Part shown: one piece after another, positions 15,124 to 52,484 of the stretch
Layout: each line of letters opens with the position of its first letter
How positions within the stretch are numbered: the first letter of the stretch is position 1
IMG/VR virus record: IMGVR_UViG_641201351_000001
Coordinates: 1-64,000 of that record
DNA length: 64,000 nt
Direction: 5' to 3' (one strand)
DNA from: a virus
Taxonomy: Duplodnaviria > Caudoviricetes
Program-made: the position numbers and the translations under genes
Notes under the pieces: model-generated
Database searches by the model: none
Told to the model about the DNA's origin: nothing
What the model saw: only the letters and a program-made list of their open reading frames with translations

Positions 15124-15453
15124 ATGGCTAAGAAGTTTTCAAAAGAACCAACAGTAGCAACACTAAAAAGTGAAATAAGAAAAATACTAGATTCTTATTA
15201 TCCATACAACAATTTTAAAGTTTCTTTAAAAACTGCTAACGACACGCTAATAATAAACATTGATGGGTGCAACTTTGACGAAGAATTTCGAAACATGTTA
15301 AATAGGTTTGTTGATTACAAAATTAAACACATTTACAGAAAAAAGACTATAAAAGAAGAAAACAAGGTTGTTGTAAAAAGGATACCTTACAAAGACTTTT
15401 ACATAAACATAAATGATGATTGCATCATGTTCAGCTACTATCGCTATCTGTAA
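15124..15453 (+). CDS. Hypothetical protein, possibly LPD29-like
   Basis: KSEIRKILDSYYPYNNFKVS...IINIDG loosely resembles LPD29 (IRKxLKxxFPxxKFSV). Confidence 0.5.
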   Translation: MAKKFSKEPTVATLKSEIRKILDSYYPYNNFKVSLKTANDTLIINIDGCNFDEEFRNMLNRFVDYKIKHIYRKKTIKEENKVVVKRIPYKDFYININDDCIMFSYYRYL

Positions 15454-44425: not shown

Positions 44426-45127
44426 TTAATCCTCGTACCACTTTCTGTTGTAGTCTATATCAAAGTCTTTCTTTAGGTTAAACTTGTGTCCATGAACAAC
44501 ACCTTCACCTATTGCAATAGAAAGCTTTCTACTTAAAACATCATTTCTCCATCTGGGATTAGCTAAATCTGCAACAACATAAGCCAAAACTTTTAGTTTT
44601 TCCCATTCATATTTTGGGTTTAGTTCTTTTATTCTCTTGTTGTATTCGTTTATGTGATCCTTTCTAGGAGCGCCGTTTTGAACAGCCACATCAAAACACA
44701 AGGCTAAGGCTCTTTCGCTTTCAAAATTTAATGCTTCACAAAGAAGTTGCGCCCTCCTAAAGTAGTTGTTTGCAGCCTTTTTAAAGGCTTCTACAGTTTC
44801 TTTTTCCTTAGCTAGGTTTTCAAACTTTATTGACCACTCTCTTTTTACTCCTTTTCCAACGAGAACATTTTTAAGAATGAAGTCTTTGAGTGTTCCGTTG
44901 TATAAAGCCTCTACAAACCCTTTTCCTAGGTATTTTTCTAAGGTTTCTTTGCTTATCATTTTCAATAGTCTTTGAAGTGTTCCTTGTCCTATGTTCCATT
45001 GAAGGGGGCCATATGAAAGTATTTGACCGTCAAAATTTCCTGCTACTCTACCCCAATCCCCACTTACTTCAAATAGGGAAACAAGTCTGAGTAGCTTTTC
45101 TTTTAGATCTTCTTTTATTTTCTTCAT
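44426..45127 (-). CDS. Lysozyme/chitosanase-superfamily hydrolase (putative endolysin)
   Basis: LFE..GNFDGQILSYGPLQWNIGQGTLQ..SERALALCFDVAVQNG. Confidence 0.7.
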   Translation of the reverse strand: MKKIKEDLKEKLLRLVSLFEVSGDWGRVAGNFDGQILSYGPLQWNIGQGTLQRLLKMISKETLEKYLGKGFVEALYNGTLKDFILKNVLVGKGVKREWSIKFENLAKEKETVEAFKKAANNYFRRAQLLCEALNFESERALALCFDVAVQNGAPRKDHINEYNKRIKELNPKYEWEKLKVLAYVVADLANPRWRNDVLSRKLSIAIGEGVVHGHKFNLKKDFDIDYNRKWYED

Positions 45128-45186
45128 ATAATATTAGTTTACAGTCTTTAATTGAACGAAAATTTTGTGATAATATAAAGTCAGCA

Positions 45187-46209
45187 ATGAAGACTAGAAC
45201 AATTGACGAAATTAGATATCTAAAAAGACTAGAAAACATCATAAAAGCTAGAATGCAAGATATTGTTAATAGCAATGATATCATTGAGTCTACCCCAGAA
45301 GATAAAGTAAGAATACGGATACCTATAATGGACGAACCGTATTTTAAACCTGTGTTTCCTGGTAGTGGTGCTGGGGCAGGATCTGGATCGGGGAGTGAAC
45401 CTGGAGAGGGTAGCGAGGAAGGTGATCACGAAATTGAAATTGAACTTACTGTTGAAGAACTTTCTGAACTTCTATTTGAATACCTAGGATTGCCCAAAAT
45501 AAAACCAAAAGGCTCTTCTGTAGAGAAAGAAGAATATTTAATTGAAGGAATTTCTAAGACTGGACCAAGATCTAGAATACACAGGAGGAAAACATATTAC
45601 GAAATTATGAAGTATGGTTATAAAGAAGATTCTATAAGGTACAAACACCTTAGGAAAAGAGAAGTACCAATATTTGATGCAATAGTTTATTTTGCAAGAG
45701 ATTACTCTGCATCAGTAGATGACAAGAAAAAATTTAAAATAAAATCAACAGCGTTTTGGATAAATAACTTCATTAAATACAATTACAAGAATGTAACAAC
45801 AAAGTTTGCTGTTCACGACACAAAGGCTAAATTTGTAAGCGAGCAAGATTTTTTTAAGTTGTCTGAAGGTGGAGCTACGCTTTGTTCTTCAGTTTTTGAG
45901 TTAATATATGAAGACTACAGAAGGTATTCAGTAGACGATTATAATTTTTACCTCTTTTACTTCTCTGATGGCGAAAATCTACCAGATGACAATCCTAAAC
46001 TTAGGGAATTAGTAGAAAAGCTATCAGAGGACTTTAACTTAATAGCTTATGGAGAGGTAAAAAGTACAGATGTTTATTACGGATATGGATCTAAAGAAAC
46101 TCTGGTTCCATTATTTATTTCAGTTGGAAAAGATAATGTATTTGCAGAAAAAATCTTTTCAGTAAAGGATTTTATATTGAGGCTTTTTGGTGAGAAAAAT
46201 GAAAGGTAG
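45187..46209 (+). CDS. yeaH: YeaH/YhbH (DUF444) VWA-domain protein
   Basis: VRIPI..EPYF, Gly-rich GSGAGAGSG..GEG..GDH, ELLFEYLGLP, RDYSAS (MIDAS), EGGATLCSS, YFSDGEN, YGEV. Confidence 0.88.
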   Translation: MKTRTIDEIRYLKRLENIIKARMQDIVNSNDIIESTPEDKVRIRIPIMDEPYFKPVFPGSGAGAGSGSGSEPGEGSEEGDHEIEIELTVEELSELLFEYLGLPKIKPKGSSVEKEEYLIEGISKTGPRSRIHRRKTYYEIMKYGYKEDSIRYKHLRKREVPIFDAIVYFARDYSASVDDKKKFKIKSTAFWINNFIKYNYKNVTTKFAVHDTKAKFVSEQDFFKLSEGGATLCSSVFELIYEDYRRYSVDDYNFYLFYFSDGENLPDDNPKLRELVEKLSEDFNLIAYGEVKSTDVYYGYGSKETLVPLFISVGKDNVFAEKIFSVKDFILRLFGEKNER

Positions 46210-47536
46210 AAATTACGAAAAAGAAACCTTAGAAATTCTTGAATGGGTAAAAGATTTGGGTTTAGAACCGAAAGACACAATTTTTGTAGATGTAGATAGA
46301 GATAAGCTAATTTTTGCAATATCAAACCACTTTGTTAATGGAATTCCACATTGGACAAAAGGAAGAAATTTCATAAAATACAAAGAACATGAATTGCAAG
46401 GAGGAAAAGTATTTGAAGTTGTTTTTAATAGTACACCAGCAGTAGCCTATATGAGTCTGGCGTTGACAGAAGCTGATATATTGACGATTATTGCTCATGT
46501 TTACGGTCATACACACATTTTTGCAAATAATATTTTTGAATACAAGGATGACAACATATTAGAAAAACTTAACTATTCTCTCCAAGTTTACGAAGAAATG
46601 CTTTCTTATTATTCTTACGATGAGCTAGATGTAATTTATGACTACGCTTATACTGCTTGGAACCTTTTGGTTCCTGATGAAATTCGTGAGAATAAAATAG
46701 AAAACACAACTAAAGAAGAGTTTACTGAGAATAAAATATTTAACAAATTTTTGGGAAGGAAGCCAAAAGTAGAAGATTTTAGGGAAAAGTACAAAAAAGA
46801 GAAAGAAACGGAGTTTAAAAAGAAATATGGAATAGGTTCTGTGTATATACACGAATACATACTAGAACATTCACCCATTCCTGATTGGATGAAAACGCTT
46901 ATAAACAATGAAATTGATCTGCTTAAAGTAATAATGAGAAAGTCAAAATTAAAAATTCTCCACGAGGGGTTTGCTTCTTGGGTAGATACAAAATATCTGC
47001 TTGAAAAAATGGAGGGAAAAGAGTTTTTTAGTAGCTTAATTTCATCTACTCTTGTTGGTTATCCCAGTTTGAGAAATCCTTACTATATTGGATATAAGTT
47101 GTTAGAATTTGCAGAGAATTTTATGAATAAGAAAATACCAGAATATGTTAAATATGTTGATGATTTTGAGCTTATAGAGGAGGTGTTTAATGAAGACTTT
47201 TTTTATTGGCTTTTAAAGCAGTTTCCTCTAGATGAGGATGAGAAGAAAATTTTGTCTGACAGAGAATTGTTTGAAGAAGTTTTTGAGAATCAGAAACAAA
47301 AACTTTTATCAGAATGTCTAAATTATTATCCAATCATTTATATAGATGACTACCCAGATAACATTGAGGAGCCGTCATATGATTATCTAAAAGTATCTTC
47401 GTATTCGCAAAACAGAAAATTAAAGCTTACTTCACAAACCCCGTTGGACACTAGGTATGCTTACGAAACACTAAAAGTTTTAGAAAAAATTTGGATGGGA
47501 CCAATTGTGTTAAGATACAAAACGCTAAAAAAATAG
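46200..47536 (+). CDS. spoVR: SpoVR/YcgB family protein
   Basis: PHWTKG, FEVVFNSTPAVAY, IAHVYGHTHIFANN, KILHEGFASW, NPYYIG. The start is uncertain (ORF track: 46187). Confidence 0.85.
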
Positions 47537-47563
47537 GCGAAAGTGCCGGGATATAATTAGATT

Positions 47564-49414
47564 ATGAACCTTGTGGATATTATAAGTTTCTTTGGAACTA
47601 CAGGATCACAACTTCCGTTTAACATAAAAGAAGAGGAAGGAAAATATTACCTAATAAACAACCCCAATAACAAAGTAAACAATATTCCGCTTTCAGATGG
47701 AATTTATTTTGAAGTAATTCAAGGTACGCTAGACAATCAAAACGGGCTAACTCAAAATTTGGTTGTTAAGCTAAGAAATCCAAACAATATACAAATAGCT
47801 TCCTCGTATGTTGTTAGACTTTACAACGCCCAAAACGGTGCTCTACTATTTGAAACTTATGTACCCACTTCCTTCGATGGTTTAGAAGTTTCTTTTTCAA
47901 CTAATGTAAATGTTCCACTTATTACGATTGAAGCAAACGGGTTAGTCCTCTACACAAGTTATGAATACTTAAATGGCTATATTCCTTTAGACCAAAGAAT
48001 TTATGCTTCTTTTAGAGATCCTAATAACATTGAAGTTTTTAGGGCTTTTTTTGTTAGAAAGGTAAACAACAAAAGATATTTCACTTCAACCTTCAGATCT
48101 GTTTACAACAAGTTTTTGAATTCGTCGGCAATTCCTTTTAGATTTTTAGACGCTTACCTAAACAATACAATAATAGGAAATTTCAATTATCAAATAATCA
48201 CAGAATTTAAATTTCCACAGCAGTATAGATTTATTTCAGAACAAGAGTCGCTTTCTATAAGCGCTTATTCAATAATGCTTTTAGCTTTCTATAAAGATTT
48301 TGTTGAAAAACTATCTGGATTTTTAGTAGATGAAGTAGACTTTTCACAACTAGATAAAGATTCAAGAAACTTTCCTTACAAAAAGTATTTTTACAACAAA
48401 AACACTTTGTCTTACGAAAAAGTATCCTCCTATGTGGACATAACAGAGCTTTTGCTTGCAATACTACTAGGAATAAAAATATATGGAATGCTAGATTCCA
48501 GCAAACAAATAATTGATAATTTGGTTAATGCGCTAAACACTTTTTCACCAACTGTTTATTATCCAGACGCATCAGTTGGTTCAAAGGCTTTAATACCTGA
48601 TATCATAAATTCAAATGTAGAAGAACAGTATTCTTTGTTTACAAATGTTTTATTTGCGCATATATTAAATCTTTTAGGAATTGATAATTCGACATTAATC
48701 GATGAAATAAACAGAGTATTTGTCAATAATAGCAAAAAAACAGAAAATAGGTCTTTAGGCACTATAAACTCTTTTACTCCTCTTGAAGCGGCAGTTATTT
48801 TAAAATTTGCACCCCAATATCTTGATACAAGTAACAATTATGTTTCTTCACTAATTTCTTCAGCAACCTCTCATCTCTATTCTGTAGAATATGTAAACTC
48901 TATAGCTTTAAATTCTGATGCAAATTCAGATTCTTACAACCCAATATATAGTGAAAATCTGTCTTCAGCTTTGCCATTTTACGACAAAAGAACTTATGTA
49001 AATCTAATTATAAATAGTCTGTTAGATAATCCGATAAACAACTTTAGAGCTTTTTCTTCTGACGAAGCAATATTGGATAGCTACAAATATTCTATTTACG
49101 AAGGTTTTTATATATTGCCTTCACTTAGAGCAAACCTGACATATTTCTTTTTGAGTATGGAGAATGCATTTGAAGGTAGGGTAGAAGAAAAATCTGAAGT
49201 TGTGCTTATAGATAGTGTTATAAGTGTTGGAACAAATCAGTTGATTGTGGAATTAATTTTTAATAAACCAGTAAAAATTTTGTCAATAATTTCTAATCAA
49301 GGAGTACCTACAGCTTACGCATCGTCAATGTCTGAAAGCGCTCACCATGTATTAACATTTTCTGTTATTAACACCTACTTAAATGGGGTTTTAGAAATTT
49401 ACGTTCTAAGTTAA
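47564..49414 (+). CDS. Hypothetical protein; degenerate paralog of 27328..29085
   Basis: Leaderless TATAAT-6-ATG; colinear degenerate motifs (see findings). Confidence 0.55.
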   Translation: MNLVDIISFFGTTGSQLPFNIKEEEGKYYLINNPNNKVNNIPLSDGIYFEVIQGTLDNQNGLTQNLVVKLRNPNNIQIASSYVVRLYNAQNGALLFETYVPTSFDGLEVSFSTNVNVPLITIEANGLVLYTSYEYLNGYIPLDQRIYASFRDPNNIEVFRAFFVRKVNNKRYFTSTFRSVYNKFLNSSAIPFRFLDAYLNNTIIGNFNYQIITEFKFPQQYRFISEQESLSISAYSIMLLAFYKDFVEKLSGFLVDEVDFSQLDKDSRNFPYKKYFYNKNTLSYEKVSSYVDITELLLAILLGIKIYGMLDSSKQIIDNLVNALNTFSPTVYYPDASVGSKALIPDIINSNVEEQYSLFTNVLFAHILNLLGIDNSTLIDEINRVFVNNSKKTENRSLGTINSFTPLEAAVILKFAPQYLDTSNNYVSSLISSATSHLYSVEYVNSIALNSDANSDSYNPIYSENLSSALPFYDKRTYVNLIINSLLDNPINNFRAFSSDEAILDSYKYSIYEGFYILPSLRANLTYFFLSMENAFEGRVEEKSEVVLIDSVISVGTNQLIVELIFNKPVKILSIISNQGVPTAYASSMSESAHHVLTFSVINTYLNGVLEIYVLS

Positions 49415-49452
49415 CCTAAAGAACGGGAAGAAAGTGCTATAATATACTCAAG

Positions 49453-51312
49453 ATGAAGTTAAACAGGTTTTTCAAGGGTAAAACAGCGGAGAGCAGAAAA
49501 CTTTCATTTAAAGAATTTCTTGAGGAAAAATTTGTAAGAAACCCCGCAAAGTATTCTAGAAGTGCACATAAATACCTTTTTGATGCAATTACATATTTTG
49601 GGTTCGATGAGGAAAGAAAAATTCCAAAAATCTTTGCAGATGAGCTTTTTGGTGTTGACGATAAAATAAGAGAATTCATGACTATTTTAGAAGCGGGCGC
49701 AAATGGTCATGATGTAAGAAGAAGAATAATCCTTTTTGTTGGTCCAGTAGGAACGGCAAAAAGTACCTTTGTAAGCATTATTAAGAAGGCACTAGAAAGA
49801 TACTCCAAAACAGAAGAAGGAGAAATTTATGCTATAGAATTTTGTCCGATACATGAAGATCCACTAAATTTGATTCCAGAAGATACAAGAGATGATTTTT
49901 ATAAGGAGTTTGGAGTAAAAATAGATCAAGAACTTTGCCCAGTTTGCAGGCATAAATTAAAGGAACTGAAATATGAAGATGTTAGTACAGTACCAGTAGT
50001 TAGGTTTACTTTTTCTGAAGCCGAAAGAAGAGGAATTGCTACATTTGTTCCTGCAGATTGGACCTCACAAGATGTTTCTGTACTTGTTGGCTCAGAAAAT
50101 TTCAGAGCTGTGCAAGAGTTAGGTGATCCTTCACATCCTTTGGGTTGGAATTTTAATGGTTCATTATTTGTTGCAAACAGAGGAATTCATGAATTTATTG
50201 AGCTTCACAAAGCAAAACCAGACCTTCTTTTTCCTTTAATTACTGTTGCACAAGAAAGAAAAGTAAAAGTTGATAGGTTTGGTTTAATCGATGTTGATGA
50301 GGTCTTGATTGCGCATACAAACTATGCAGAATACAATAAATTCGTTAACAAAAAAGAAAATGAAGCGTTAAAAGATAGAACAAGAGAAATAAATTGGATT
50401 TACAATTTAAGATGGGACGATGAAGAAAAAATTTATAAAAAAATGTTGGGAGAAACTACATATCATTTGGCTCCTTGGACATTAAAGTTCATTTCGGGTA
50501 TTGCAATTATGTCTAGATTATCACCAGATAGAGATAAGAAGTATGACTTGTTAACTTCATTAAAACTTTACAACGGTGATTATGGTGCAATGTACTCTGA
50601 ATACCATGTAGACGAAATGAAACATCCTGACGATGGTAAGTTCGGCATTTCGCCAAGGGTAGCAGTAGATGCGCTAAGCTTTGCTTCAGTAGGAAACACT
50701 TGTGTTACTCCAATTAGAGCCTACGAAAAACTAGAAGAAATAATTAAATCTGGAAATGTTGACATACCTCATAAAGAATTTTTGGCGCTAAAAGATATGA
50801 TTTTAACAGAATACAACAAATTTATCAAAGATGCAGTCTTCAGAGCTTTCATCGGTTCTTCCTTTGCCACCGAAGCGCAAAAGTATGTGGATCGTTATAT
50901 TGAAAACGCCCAGGCGTTTATTAATGGAGAAAAAATAAAAGATCCATTTACAGGAAATTATGTAGAACCTGATGAAAAATTTTTAAGGTCAATTGAAGAG
51001 CTAGTTGGAATTTCTAAAGAAGCCGCAAAAGATTTTAGAATGAAAATTCTTGTTAAAGCAACAAATTTACTGAGAATGGGCAAAAAGATTACTTACGATA
51101 TTCATCCTCTGCTAAAAGAAGCGATTGAAAATAAAATCTTTGGCGATAGAGCAACATTTATAAGGGGCTCAATAACTTCTGTAGTAAAAACTGAAGAACA
51201 GGAAAAGCACATACAAGAAGCAGTTGAAGAACTTAAAAAGGTTGGATTTTGCGAAGTTTGTGCAAGAGAAGCTATAAGCTATGTAGCATACCTACTTGAT
51301 GTAGCAAGATAA
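49453..51312 (+). CDS. yeaG: PrkA/YeaG AAA+ ATPase (annotated as serine kinase)
   Basis: LFGVDD, LFVGPVGTAKS, CPIHEDPL, LCPVC, SQDVSVLVG, ANRGIHEFIE, IAHTN, NEALKDR, GISPR. Confidence 0.92.
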   Translation: MKLNRFFKGKTAESRKLSFKEFLEEKFVRNPAKYSRSAHKYLFDAITYFGFDEERKIPKIFADELFGVDDKIREFMTILEAGANGHDVRRRIILFVGPVGTAKSTFVSIIKKALERYSKTEEGEIYAIEFCPIHEDPLNLIPEDTRDDFYKEFGVKIDQELCPVCRHKLKELKYEDVSTVPVVRFTFSEAERRGIATFVPADWTSQDVSVLVGSENFRAVQELGDPSHPLGWNFNGSLFVANRGIHEFIELHKAKPDLLFPLITVAQERKVKVDRFGLIDVDEVLIAHTNYAEYNKFVNKKENEALKDRTREINWIYNLRWDDEEKIYKKMLGETTYHLAPWTLKFISGIAIMSRLSPDRDKKYDLLTSLKLYNGDYGAMYSEYHVDEMKHPDDGKFGISPRVAVDALSFASVGNTCVTPIRAYEKLEEIIKSGNVDIPHKEFLALKDMILTEYNKFIKDAVFRAFIGSSFATEAQKYVDRYIENAQAFINGEKIKDPFTGNYVEPDEKFLRSIEELVGISKEAAKDFRMKILVKATNLLRMGKKITYDIHPLLKEAIENKIFGDRATFIRGSITSVVKTEEQEKHIQEAVEELKKVGFCEVCAREAISYVAYLLDVAR

Positions 51313-51371
51313 AAAAGAAGAATTTGAAATTTAAACTAACTTTTCCTTCCCTAACAATGGGAAGGACGACC

Positions 51372-51400
51372 TTGCTTTCCAAAACTTTTTGTGTTAAGAT
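51372..51400 (+). promoter_or_regulatory. Promoter TTGCTT-17-(TGT)TAAGAT
   Basis: -35 at 51372-51377, -10 at 51395-51400, 9 nt before ATG 51410. Confidence 0.5.
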
Positions 51401-51409
51401 AGGTCTAGT

Positions 51410-51997
51410 ATGTACCTACCGAGTTTAATAGGGCTAGTGGGAAAAGCGGGTTCAGGAAAAGACAGATTCTACTATTCGGTTTTAGCGAAATATAATTATG
51501 TGAGAATAGCTTTTGGCGATCCTGTAAAAGTTCTGTCAGTAATTCACTTACTAAAAAGTTATCCTGGAATTCTGGAAAAAGAAGATCAATTGCTAAGAGT
51601 TTTTCCTTCTCTGTATATTGAACTATTTTCTAACCAAAAAACCTCTCTTTCTAGAACACTTCAACAATATATCGGAACTGACTTAGCAAGAAGATTTGAT
51701 GAAAATTATTGGATAAAAATAGCAGAAGAACTTATAAAGGAAAAACTAGAAAAAGGAATTCGAGTAGCAGTTACTGATGTCAGATTTTTGAATGAGGCAG
51801 AAAGCATTAAGAAGCTTGGTGGAATTTTAATTAAGATAGTTGGTAAAGGTTCCTACGATTATGGTAATTTGGAAGCAAAACATCAATCAGAAAGCGAATT
51901 GGAAAAAATAGTTTGCGATTATACAGAAAATGAGTTTACTTCTCTAATTAAAAAACACCAAATCCTCGCTTCGGAGGTAGAAGATACAGGACAGTAG
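51410..51997 (+). CDS. Deoxynucleoside monophosphate kinase
   Basis: IGLVGKAGSGKD, AFGDPVK, RTLQQYIGTD, YWI, TDVRFLNEA, HQSE. Confidence 0.9.
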   Translation: MYLPSLIGLVGKAGSGKDRFYYSVLAKYNYVRIAFGDPVKVLSVIHLLKSYPGILEKEDQLLRVFPSLYIELFSNQKTSLSRTLQQYIGTDLARRFDENYWIKIAEELIKEKLEKGIRVAVTDVRFLNEAESIKKLGGILIKIVGKGSYDYGNLEAKHQSESELEKIVCDYTENEFTSLIKKHQILASEVEDTGQ

Positions 51998-52022: not shown

Positions 52023-52051
52023 TTGACTCAAAACATGGAGTGTGGTATGAT
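52023..52051 (+). promoter_or_regulatory. tRNA promoter TTGACT-17-(TGG)TATGAT
   Basis: -35 at 52023-52028, -10 at 52046-52051. Confidence 0.75.
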
Positions 52052-52067
52052 AGCTTTTGAGATGAGT

Positions 52068-52143
52068 GGCCTCGTAGCTCAACAGGAAGAGCACTCGCCT
52101 TGTAAGCGGGGGGTTGTGGGTTCAAATCCCACCGGGGCCTCCA
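52068..52143 (+). tRNA. tRNA-Thr (UGU)
   Basis: Cloverleaf: GGCCTCG/CGGGGCC acceptor, GCTC/GAGC D-arm, CTCGC-CTTGTAA-GCGGG anticodon arm, GTGGG-TTCAAAT-CCCAC T-arm, encoded CCA. Confidence 0.95.
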
Positions 52144-52148
52144 GAAAG

Positions 52149-52484
52149 ATGAAAAAAGTAAAAATAATAACCTCCTCAGAGCCTAATAAAGACTTTGTTA
52201 ATATAAACCTCCTAAATCGTAATGGAATTTTGAGGAAAAGCATTACCTATGGAGTTATGTTGAGAGAAACAAATTATGTATTTTTTGGAGTCAATGGAGA
52301 AACATACTTCAAAAACTATGTTAAAGATGTCTTTATAAGCGGAAAAAATAAACTTTTAGAAGAACTAAAAACAAAGGACACAATAAATCTTGTAACTATT
52401 GATGGAAAAGAAAATTTTTACAGCAAAATCTTAAAAGAAGTTTTATCTGATATCTTAAAAGAAGAAGGTTTTGAAGTCATTTAA
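52149..52484 (+). CDS. Hypothetical protein
   Basis: ATG 52149 after the tRNA; the ORF-track extension overlaps the tRNA and its promoter. Confidence 0.55.
   Translation: MKKVKIITSSEPNKDFVNINLLNRNGILRKSITYGVMLRETNYVFFGVNGETYFKNYVKDVFISGKNKLLEELKTKDTINLVTIDGKENFYSKILKEVLSDILKEEGFEVI

Follow-up and report, generated by a model that had tools for sequence, protein, structure and literature searches.

We describe here a putative protein-remodeling or proteolytic module encoded by a tailed phage, located in a stretch of 64,000 nucleotides (nt) that was analyzed as a whole and is called the window below (IMG/VR record IMGVR_UViG_641201351_000001, positions 1 to 64,000). Between positions 45187 and 51312 this window encodes homologs of the bacterial proteins PrkA (YeaG), YeaH (YhbH) and SpoVR (YcgB), and comparison with their bacterial and viral relatives shows the phage to possess a PrkA-YeaH-SpoVR module that appears functional and long-resident, and which belongs to a gene-order class that we term type A. 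The module combines a MoxR/LonB-like AAA+ ATPase, a von Willebrand factor A (VWA) protein with an intact metal ion-dependent adhesion site (MIDAS) and a protein with a zinc-metallopeptidase-like fold, and its probable task during infection is the remodeling or degradation of proteins inside the cell. The best reading at present, to which we assign a probability of roughly 0.45 and which leans on analogy with Escherichia coli YeaG, is that the triad would conduct a phage-run, mid-infection turnover of host cytoplasmic proteins. The DNA of the region 45000-51400 is 98.7% identical to that of Thermus phage TMA and 87.8% identical to that of YS40_Isch, the record of phage phiLo names its homologs by reference to 'Thermus phage phiYS40', and the window (G+C content 33%) is taken to represent phiYS40 or a near-identical relative; phiYS40 is presumably a lytic phage. 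The features of the locus are as follows.

45166-45176, plus strand: -35-less extended -10-like box TGTGATAATAT upstream of yeaH, recognized by reading the sequence and by pattern match
45187-46209, plus strand: yeaH/yhbH-like gene, 340 amino acids (aa), Pfam DUF444 E=4.5e-48; DUF444 region with a Gly/Ser/Glu-rich linker, then a C-terminal VWA domain with intact MIDAS
46199-47536, plus strand: spoVR/ycgB-like gene, 445 aa from the ATG, Pfam PF04293 E=5.3e-23
47540-47557, plus strand: promoter-like box AAAGTGC...TATAAT before the 616-aa gene, ending 6 nt before its ATG (leaderless spacing)
47564-49414, plus strand: orphan reading frame of 616 aa between spoVR and prkA, a gene call with no family match
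49431-49443, plus strand: promoter-like box AAAGTGCTATAAT (extended -10) before prkA, 9 nt before its ATG and with no Shine-Dalgarno (SD) sequence
49453-51312, plus strand: prkA/yeaG-like gene, 619 aa, AAA_PrkA E=1.4e-82 and PrkA C-domain E=1.3e-52; N-terminal AAA+ ATPase (Walker A GPVGTAKS; EFIE acidic pair), then an all-helical C-terminal PrkA domain

The listing of open reading frames (ORFs) thus gives four co-oriented genes, yeaH, spoVR, the 616-aa ORF and prkA. An earlier note on this DNA had reported a complete triad with intact key motifs and overlapping yeaH and spoVR; the ORF calls and Pfam matches bear out all three genes at their positions, and the overlap is real, amounting to 11 nt when counted from the ATG at 46199. 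What that note overlooked is the 616-aa ORF at 47564-49414, which splits spoVR from prkA, such that the module is not contiguous. An alternative TTG start at 46187 would give a SpoVR of 449 aa; the TMA annotation uses the ATG, just upstream of which lies an SD-like GGTGAG, and yeaH and spoVR are probably translationally coupled. The mere presence of the three genes in a phage is not new, for the GenBank records of sister phages already name them: the TMA record labels the four genes, in order, 'conserved bacterial protein', 'SpoVR', 'hypothetical protein' and 'serine kinase', and similar labels are found in the records of MN1, phiLo and the Lalka phages.

Profile comparisons place each protein in its family and at the same time set it apart from the best-studied members. 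Phage PrkA passes the gathering scores of both AAA_PrkA (PF08298; 278 bits vs 25) and the C-terminal PrkA domain (PF06798; 179.5 bits vs 25), and fails the equivalog cut-off for E. coli YeaG (NCBIfam NF011999; 209.9 bits vs 576), and on these scores it is best described as a divergent subfamily member and not a YeaG equivalog. Likewise, YeaH passes PF04285 (164.8 bits vs 27) and fails the cut-off for the sporulation YhbH equivalog (TIGR02877; 178.5 bits vs 467.95). SpoVR passes PF04293 (81.8 bits vs 27) with a match that covers only profile positions 9-327 of 407; the SpoVR_C profile (PF24755) has no match in the phage protein or in a type A Alicyclobacillus protein, and matches two type B proteins. 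Homologs were then gathered by jackhmmer from the ORFs of fetched loci and aligned. In these alignments the MIDAS residues of YeaH (D172, S174, S176, T231, D261 and G262, i.e. DxSxS, T and D) are kept in 77/77 sequences, while the two histidines of the SpoVR AHVYGH motif, the Glu-Gly of HEGFASW, an N-P-Y-x-x-G block and one aspartate are kept in 69/69. The PrkA residues G97, K103, S104, G244, E250, E293, R309, E324 and R355 are kept in 99/99 sequences and E247 in 97/99. Hence the motifs reported by the earlier note coincide with family-invariant columns, and the loss of catalytic residues that it proposed to look for in alignments has not occurred. phiYS40 has Leu as the pore-loop residue preceding the conserved glycine, where the other sequences have Tyr, Phe, Ile or Trp. 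A search of the four proteins against the PADLOC anti-phage defence models recovered no family at E<=0.01, and a reading of the module as a defence system was dropped on that account.

To place these proteins, we surveyed the gene order at 80 bacterial loci fetched from genome contigs. The order prkA-yeaH-spoVR, which we call type B, is found in 35 of the 80, with 4 more having prkA-yeaH only, while the order yeaH-spoVR-prkA, type A, is found in 15, with 2 more having spoVR-prkA only. In the remaining 24 loci prkA stands alone, several of these contigs being cut short; in L064 a merged ORF call conceals what is a type B locus. The type A arrangement occurs in Alicyclobacillus, Sulfobacillus, other Bacillota metagenome-assembled genomes (MAGs), one Spirochaetia MAG and one 'Synergistia' MAG, and its YeaH proteins are shorter (about 330-365 aa). 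All the Thermus phages, comprising four lineages, and three related IMG/VR contigs are of type A. By order and sequence the phage genes are thus members of a divergent 'type A' subfamily, which to that extent is newly recognized here. The type A loci of Alicyclobacillus mengziensis and Sulfobacillus thermotolerans lie among genes for transporters, a nitroreductase, glycosyltransferases and a histidine kinase, and are not situated in prophages. Among the four type-A-bearing genomes that were searched, A. mengziensis, A. ferrooxydans and S. thermotolerans have two PrkA genes each, of which the second is the higher-scoring, so type A is a paralog beside a canonical copy in thermoacidophilic Bacillota; the Spirochaetia MAG has the type A copy only. 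The thermoacidophilic Bacillota (Alicyclobacillus, Sulfobacillus) have two or three PrkA paralogs, a canonical copy along with the divergent type A copy with its inverted order.

A phylogenetic analysis of PrkA was consistent with this division. The tree comprised 80 rows, 39 of the 119 collected having been dropped, all of them redundant type B bacterial loci; it was inferred by a short IQ-TREE search under LG+G4 with SH-aLRT support only and rooted on Enterobacter YeaG, and composition bias and long branches were flagged for several rows. Type A forms one clade (41 rows, SH-aLRT 97), and L064, which had been labeled A by virtue of its merged ORF call, is placed outside it among the type B rows. 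Nested within the bacterial type A, the Thermus phages and their metagenomic kin form a single clade (22 rows, SH-aLRT 100) that is sister to the Alicyclobacillus type A group (99) and contains three deep sub-clades, namely phiYS40-like, Lalka with MN1, and phiLo-like. The best bacterial match of the phage PrkA, from A. mengziensis, has 45% identity. The SpoVR tree agrees (seven phage rows at 100, with the Alicyclobacillus group as sister at 82), and the YeaH tree agrees broadly, in that the phages and the Alicyclobacillus group share one clade (93) in which the phages are not resolved as monophyletic. Seven large, triad-bearing IMG/VR contigs (66-395 kb) form a clade of their own in the PrkA tree (100), and PrkA of the Ralstonia jumbo phage RsoM2USA and of LR745206 is placed near the proteobacterial YeaG. 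Because these large contigs, RsoM2USA and LR745206 fall outside the Thermus-phage clade, phages acquired the triad several times. Also inside the Thermus-phage clade is a 38-kb 'Synergistia' MAG contig (L015) with a phiLo-like long SpoVR (628 aa) and PrkA, which is probably a phage contig binned into the MAG, or a prophage.

Against its close IMG/VR relative L087 the four genes show DNA identities of 83-90% (prkA about 88%), with the promoter boxes kept, and the ratio of nonsynonymous to synonymous substitution rates (dN/dS) is 0.034 for yeaH, 0.039 for spoVR, 0.088 for the 616-aa ORF and 0.029 for prkA, with dS values of 0.65-1.4 that are partly saturated. The G+C content of the locus ranges from 0.30 in L088 through 0.33 in phiYS40, 0.52 in phiLo and 0.62 in MN1 to 0.71 in Lalka8. 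The deep phage clade, the spread of its loci over 30-71% G+C and dN/dS values of 0.03-0.09 together show a module that is old, selected and inherited as a unit, in agreement with the earlier view of it as domesticated rather than a recent passenger, which the conservation of the boxes in L087 likewise favors.

Among 50,697 phage records, 14 contain a relative of PrkA, 16 of YeaH and 12 of SpoVR. By tblastn 11 of the 14 PrkA records hold all three genes: TMA twice, YS40_Isch, MN1, three Lalka phages (Lalka8, Lalka27a and Lalka27b), phiLo and the huge metagenomic records LR756511, LR745206 and LR756502. In RsoM2USA all three are recovered by jackhmmer and are listed in the table of its paper, and thus the co-occurrence across phage genomes that the earlier note had proposed as a check is indeed found; LR756504 has PrkA and SpoVR only. 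IMG/VR contigs extend this set: two resemble phiYS40, one of 55 kb has a PrkA with 56% identity, and the triad is found on ten others that measure 95-395 kb. Certain other records have to be kept apart from these. The first 3308 bases of the Enterobacter phage LAU1 record hold an ordinary enterobacterial yeaG-yeaH pair beside tail-fibre genes, so this is host DNA at a prophage edge, and such records inflate the counts of 'phage-encoded' PrkA. Many prophage-type IMG/VR contigs of 19-85 kb (L096-L113) similarly end in or beside a truncated canonical prkA, often followed by yeaH, which looks like a prophage boundary drawn in, or integration beside, the host prkA and not like phage-owned genes. 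The Bacillus phages Deep Blue, Kioshi and CM1 encode a YeaH-like VWA 'sporulation protein' and have no PrkA or SpoVR match.

The inserted 616-aa ORF has no match in Pfam, NCBIfam, PADLOC or the Atlas and falls only in its own PHROG; relatives were found in three phage records and, among 1.84 billion representative proteins, in eight of 182-648 aa. It is confined to the phiYS40/TMA subgroup; in L088, MN1, Lalka and phiLo no such gene separates spoVR from prkA. Its dN/dS relative to L087 indicates that it is under purifying selection. Its promoter box is a near-copy of the box before prkA. The pattern AAAGTGC...TATAAT occurs twice in the window against 0.11 expected, and because the two copies lie before the 616-aa ORF and before prkA and nowhere else, they suggest that the insertion arrived with, or caused, a duplicated promoter.

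The promoter-like boxes bear on when the module might be expressed. In 13 of the 71 ORFs in the window the hexamer TANNNT stops exactly 6 nt short of the start codon and an SD is absent, against about 2 ORFs at other offsets, and this is a real style of the phage, which fits the leaderless style ascribed to phiYS40 in the Lalka preprint. The earlier note had assigned yeaH and prkA to this SD-less style. The style itself stands, and an SD is absent before yeaH, the 616-aa ORF and prkA; what does not stand is the spacing, since within the module only the 616-aa ORF (TATAAT) is at 6 nt. Upstream of prkA we find TGCTATAAT at 9 nt and TAATAT at 7, and upstream of yeaH TGTGATAAT, with TAATAT at 10 and TAAAGT at 5. 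The yeaH box is kept in TMA and L087 while the DNA further upstream diverges, and the prkA box is identical in L087; the boxes are putative promoters. In a second group, comprising yeaH, prkA, the dNMP kinase gene at 51410 and genes at 15124 and 34631, the start codon follows GTGnTAnnnT at a distance of 8-10 nt. Generic searches of the window gave background levels: a -35/-10 scan found 23 sites against 25.5 in shuffles and no plus-strand terminator, and the general extended -10 pattern GTGNTANNNT occurs 28 times against 29 expected. Of greater consequence is Lalka27a, for which the preprint describes a promoter, P12-M, that has a start site seen by sRNA-seq and neither a -35 element nor a TG extension, and places it 'in front of middle gene 12'. 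Gene 12 is the VWA/YeaH gene, and it lies between a minor head protein gene and, further on, TerL. Because it is a middle gene with its own promoter, the triad of Lalka27a is thus a middle-class island among late genes.

Structural models were predicted for PrkA and SpoVR. That of PrkA (56-sequence alignment, predicted local distance difference test (pLDDT) 91.1, predicted template modeling (pTM) score 0.83) has an AAA+ core and a C-terminal half that is almost purely helical. Its best Foldseek matches are the NorQD complex (E=1.6e-6), LonB of T. onnurineus (2.3e-6), BchI (9.8e-6) and CbbQ (1.7e-5), those to NorQ, BchI and CbbQ having a probability of 1.00 and template modeling scores of 0.64-0.72 normalized to the target; further matches are to Clp, FtsH and RuvB-type ATPases. 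By this comparison the AAA+ fold of PrkA belongs to the MoxR/Mg-chelatase group, in support of the AAA+/VWA logic that the earlier note had proposed. No kinase is among the 50 Foldseek matches listed for the whole PrkA model, the C-domain not having been searched separately. Residues 366-617 are almost entirely helical in the model; Hanks-type kinases have a bilobal fold with a beta-rich N-lobe. The only solved relative by sequence is a 692-aa 'Serine protein kinase' (9xip/9xiq/9xir; 30 chains in three entries, E=7e-97), for which no paper was found among those combining PrkA, cryo-EM and AAA+.

The SpoVR model (50 sequences, pLDDT 80.5, pTM 0.79) begins with a small sheet, followed by a long helix bearing the H-V-Y-G-H motif, a low-confidence insert spanning residues 162-214 and, later, a helix that is predicted to begin with an invariant glutamate (E256 counted from the ATG at 46199), a candidate third metal ligand beside the two histidines. 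Foldseek returned nothing for it at E<=0.001. With VIA-align against 48,161 representative chains, 39 of the best 50 rows are named zinc metallopeptidases, at Z 5.5-8.8, which supports the 'putative metalloenzyme' of the earlier note: the neighbors include M30 lugdulysin, M1 aminopeptidases, LTA4 hydrolase, DPP III, members of M32, M3, M9, M2 and M61, thermolysin, LasB and MATCAP, along with DUF885 and two TFIID entries.

In the mechanism that we favor, the genes would be transcribed from the -35-less -10 boxes as non-structural, middle-type genes, and a PrkA ring would use ATP in the infected cytoplasm. The VWA domain of YeaH would couple PrkA to client proteins, to SpoVR or to both, with SpoVR supplying or receiving a metal-dependent hydrolytic activity. 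The phage triad could then switch on bulk turnover of host protein whatever the growth state of the host, as E. coli YeaG (SpdA) does in starvation, and the freed amino acids and energy would go to virion synthesis in nutrient-poor hot springs. The model for this is the report that deletion of yeaG in E. coli abolishes extended starvation-induced protein degradation (SPD), a largely non-specific, cytoplasmic process that supplies amino acids and energy, for which the gene was renamed spdA (PMC13684143, PNAS 2026). PrkA of B. subtilis is reported to bind and hydrolyze ATP by means of its Walker A lysine and to degrade casein slowly in an ATP-dependent manner (PMC9512850). The latent period of RsoM2USA is given as 270 min, and such long latency together with a nutrient-poor habitat would make slow recycling more plausible for large phages. 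A stronger version, that PrkA, YeaH and SpoVR constitute a three-part ATP-dependent protease behind the YeaG-dependent proteolysis, with which Thermus phages and, independently, several jumbo phages degrade the host proteome in mid-infection using their own copy, is conceivable and in our judgment doubtful. In it a MoxR/LonB-like motor would work with a VWA adaptor and a zincin-like hydrolase whose active site is unorthodox, and the process would be a protein-level counterpart of phage-driven degradation of host DNA.

Several observations weigh against this proteolytic proposal. The main text of the E. coli study contains no occurrence of YeaH or YcgB, and the PrkA of B. anthracis on its own is described as having negligible protease and kinase activity in vitro (PMC13001217). 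SPD in E. coli is reported to consume a few percent of the proteome each hour and to extend over tens of hours (PMC13684143), as against lysis at about 70 min in the Lalka27a preprint, and therefore the yield within one infection cycle could be small. For SpoVR, the VIA-align scores (Z 5.5-9.1 over 156-205 aligned residues, spanning model residues 1 to about 340) are middling even at 8-9, given that Z values of 7-8 are common, so that its zincin-likeness follows from the consistency of the list of neighbors and not from the scores. Its motif is H-V-x-G-H, in which a near-invariant valine replaces the catalytic glutamate of the zincin HExxH, and going by the model SpoVR is therefore a metallohydrolase of an unorthodox kind, or else a relative without catalytic activity. 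No sequence link to peptidases emerged from a profile search of PDB sequences (E<=10) or from Pfam at E<=10 on fragments and three bacterial SpoVRs; nor was literature linking SpoVR to metallopeptidases found, judged mostly from titles and the openings of abstracts, the co-mentions looking unrelated. The module is surrounded by structural and packaging genes. Among public sequencing runs no RNA run matches the phiYS40 stretch, and 0.06-0.13 of the sampled words are found in hot-spring and compost metagenomes. Lastly, each of the three Pfam families matches 4 of 14 control genomes, and the 4 are the same every time (E. coli, B. subtilis, T. thermophilus and H. volcanii). This speaks for co-inheritance of the families, and it means that the host species T. 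thermophilus has a triad of its own; a second one in the phage calls for an explanation. The gene numbers of T. aquaticus (prkA 1649, spoVR 1651; PMC4605624) suggest that the host copy has type B order. No PrkA is encoded by the megaplasmid pTT27, no Deinococcota are among the 80 PrkA loci kept from the genome-contig profile scan, no Thermus or Deinococcus is among the best 40 of 75 plasmid records with PrkA, and none of the best 120 PrkA relatives, the weakest of which scores 434 bits, is named as coming from Thermus.

Of the competing explanations, the one that fares best is a maturation machine of the MoxR type, in which PrkA and YeaH would remodel or metal-load a single client, be it SpoVR or a phage or host metalloenzyme, with no bulk proteolysis. 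The best solved matches of the PrkA model, namely NorQ (solved with the NorD VWA domain), CbbQ and BchI, point in this direction, as do the full MIDAS in YeaH, a SpoVR that is metalloenzyme-like yet without the usual catalytic glutamate, and the yeaH/spoVR overlap with its probable translational coupling. However, the proteome-wide effect of the yeaG deletion in E. coli (PMC13684143) is hard to reconcile with a single-client chaperone, LonB, a protease, matches the model about as well as NorQ, and the client itself is hypothetical; we hold this explanation to be unlikely.

Alternatively, PrkA might act as a kinase, or as a regulated protease of a few regulators, and so reprogram the stationary or stress state of the host, for instance so that starved cells stay productive, or so that the triad of the host itself, with which a phage copy could interfere, is overridden. 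The family is annotated as Ser protein kinase, autophosphorylation of E. coli YeaG and its phosphorylation of AceA are cited in PMC9512850, and prkA mutants of B. subtilis and B. anthracis have pleiotropic regulatory defects (PMC9512850, PMC13001217). Nevertheless, the C-terminal 'kinase' domain is all-helical in the model, the 50 Foldseek matches listed for the whole model include no kinase, no kinase activity was seen in the experiments reported for B. subtilis PrkA (PMC9512850; Zhang 2022) or in the B. anthracis study, and the three genes are kept as a block in every phage lineage, which fits a machine better than a regulator. A regulatory takeover thus seems to us quite unlikely.

Neighboring genes raise the further question of whether the module might assist head or tail proteins in virion assembly as a chaperone, or might process them, a role that the earlier note had also entertained. 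In phiYS40 it lies between baseplate-like genes (with a Sheath_initiator match and tail-fibre-like repeats) and the terminase, and in the Lalka phages between portal/minor head genes and TerL. On the other side, gene 12 of Lalka27a is a middle gene with its own promoter inside the late structural genes, the same phage has a separate prohead protease in gene 59, as the preprint describes it, and the bacterial homologs reside in ordinary chromosomal contexts, so that a part in virion morphogenesis is disfavored and, in our estimate, very improbable. That the genes are non-functional passenger DNA recently taken from the host, as the homologs of all three families in the host species and the plain host yeaG-yeaH at the edge of the LAU1 record might lead one to think, is refuted as far as such evidence can refute it by the low dN/dS, the retention of every invariant residue, a best bacterial identity of only 45%, and the depth and G+C range of the phage clade, and we give it practically no credence. 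The identity, motifs, domestication, AAA+/VWA logic and putative metalloenzyme character proposed by the earlier note are all supported, with virion assembly being the part that fares badly.

The surroundings of the module show several further features. Divergent from yeaH on the minus strand (44426-45127) is a 233-aa gene without a Pfam match here, whose homolog in TMA is a 'peptidoglycan-binding domain containing protein'. In the vicinity of the MN1 triad there are an identically annotated gene and one for a dNMP kinase, and the Lalka phages also have a dNMP kinase gene near theirs; these shared neighbors therefore indicate a local synteny common to the phiYS40/TMA, MN1 and Lalka lineages. 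Downstream, a tRNA-Thr (anticodon TGT) at 52068-52143 lies inside a 153-aa ORF (52023-52484) that is a hypothetical protein in sister-phage records and may be spurious.

Few bacterial gene sets that lack an accepted mechanism are as widely conserved as this triad, and its ATPase was tied in October 2026 to a global starvation proteolysis program in E. coli (PMC13684143). Here a small thermostable viral version has been kept together in at least four lineages of Thermus phages and in unrelated jumbo phages. Its proteins offer a compact, crystallization-friendly set for studying their joint action, including whether SpoVR is a hydrolase, and with them it can be tested directly whether host protein is recycled by viruses as host DNA is. 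If turnover of host protein by the triad is borne out, phages infecting starved cells would have a new class of auxiliary metabolic function. If the module has another role, the phage still narrows the search, since here the triad is self-contained outside sporulation or RpoS control.

Comparison with known systems brings out what is shared and what is particular to the phage. E. coli YeaG(SpdA)-YeaH-YcgB and B. subtilis PrkA-YhbH-SpoVR belong to the same three Pfam families, and their invariant residues are kept in the phage. They differ in order, the phage having yeaH-spoVR-prkA and not prkA-yeaH-spoVR, and the phage YeaH is about 50 aa shorter, its SpoVR is without a SpoVR_C match, and the module is virus-encoded with phage-type -10 boxes. 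Closer are the type A triads of Alicyclobacillus, Sulfobacillus and Bacillota MAGs, a sister group that shares the phage order, the short YeaH and the partial SpoVR profile match; unlike the phage module these are chromosomal, and in three of the four genomes searched they occur beside a second PrkA copy. The other phage triads (MN1, Lalka8, Lalka27a, Lalka27b, phiLo, TMA, RsoM2USA and the huge metagenomic phages) have all three genes clustered, as in phiYS40. Within this set the bacterial order characterizes RsoM2USA, LR756511, LR745206 and the ten IMG/VR contigs of 95-395 kb, which also branch elsewhere in the tree and so represent separate acquisitions.

Among the AAA+ systems, the MoxR-type pairs NorQ-NorD, CbbQ-CbbO and BchI-BchD are closest to the AAA+ fold of PrkA and have a partner gene with a VWA MIDAS; RavA-ViaA, named by the earlier note, is a further AAA+/VWA pair of this kind. 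Relative to these pairs, PrkA has a large additional helical C-terminal domain along with N-terminal additions, the triad has a third, zincin-like member, and contact between PrkA and YeaH is putative. PrkA of B. anthracis has been put in AAA+ clade III on the basis of a predicted model (PMC13001217). The AAA+ proteases FtsH and LonB offer a different comparison, with an AAA+ ring next to a hydrolase. The protease domain of FtsH is of the zincin fold class, and LonB, the second-best match of the PrkA model, has a Ser-Lys Lon protease domain, of which no counterpart was recognized in the triad. In contrast to both, the phage module would have its motor and its putative hydrolase on separate polypeptides, with a VWA protein added.

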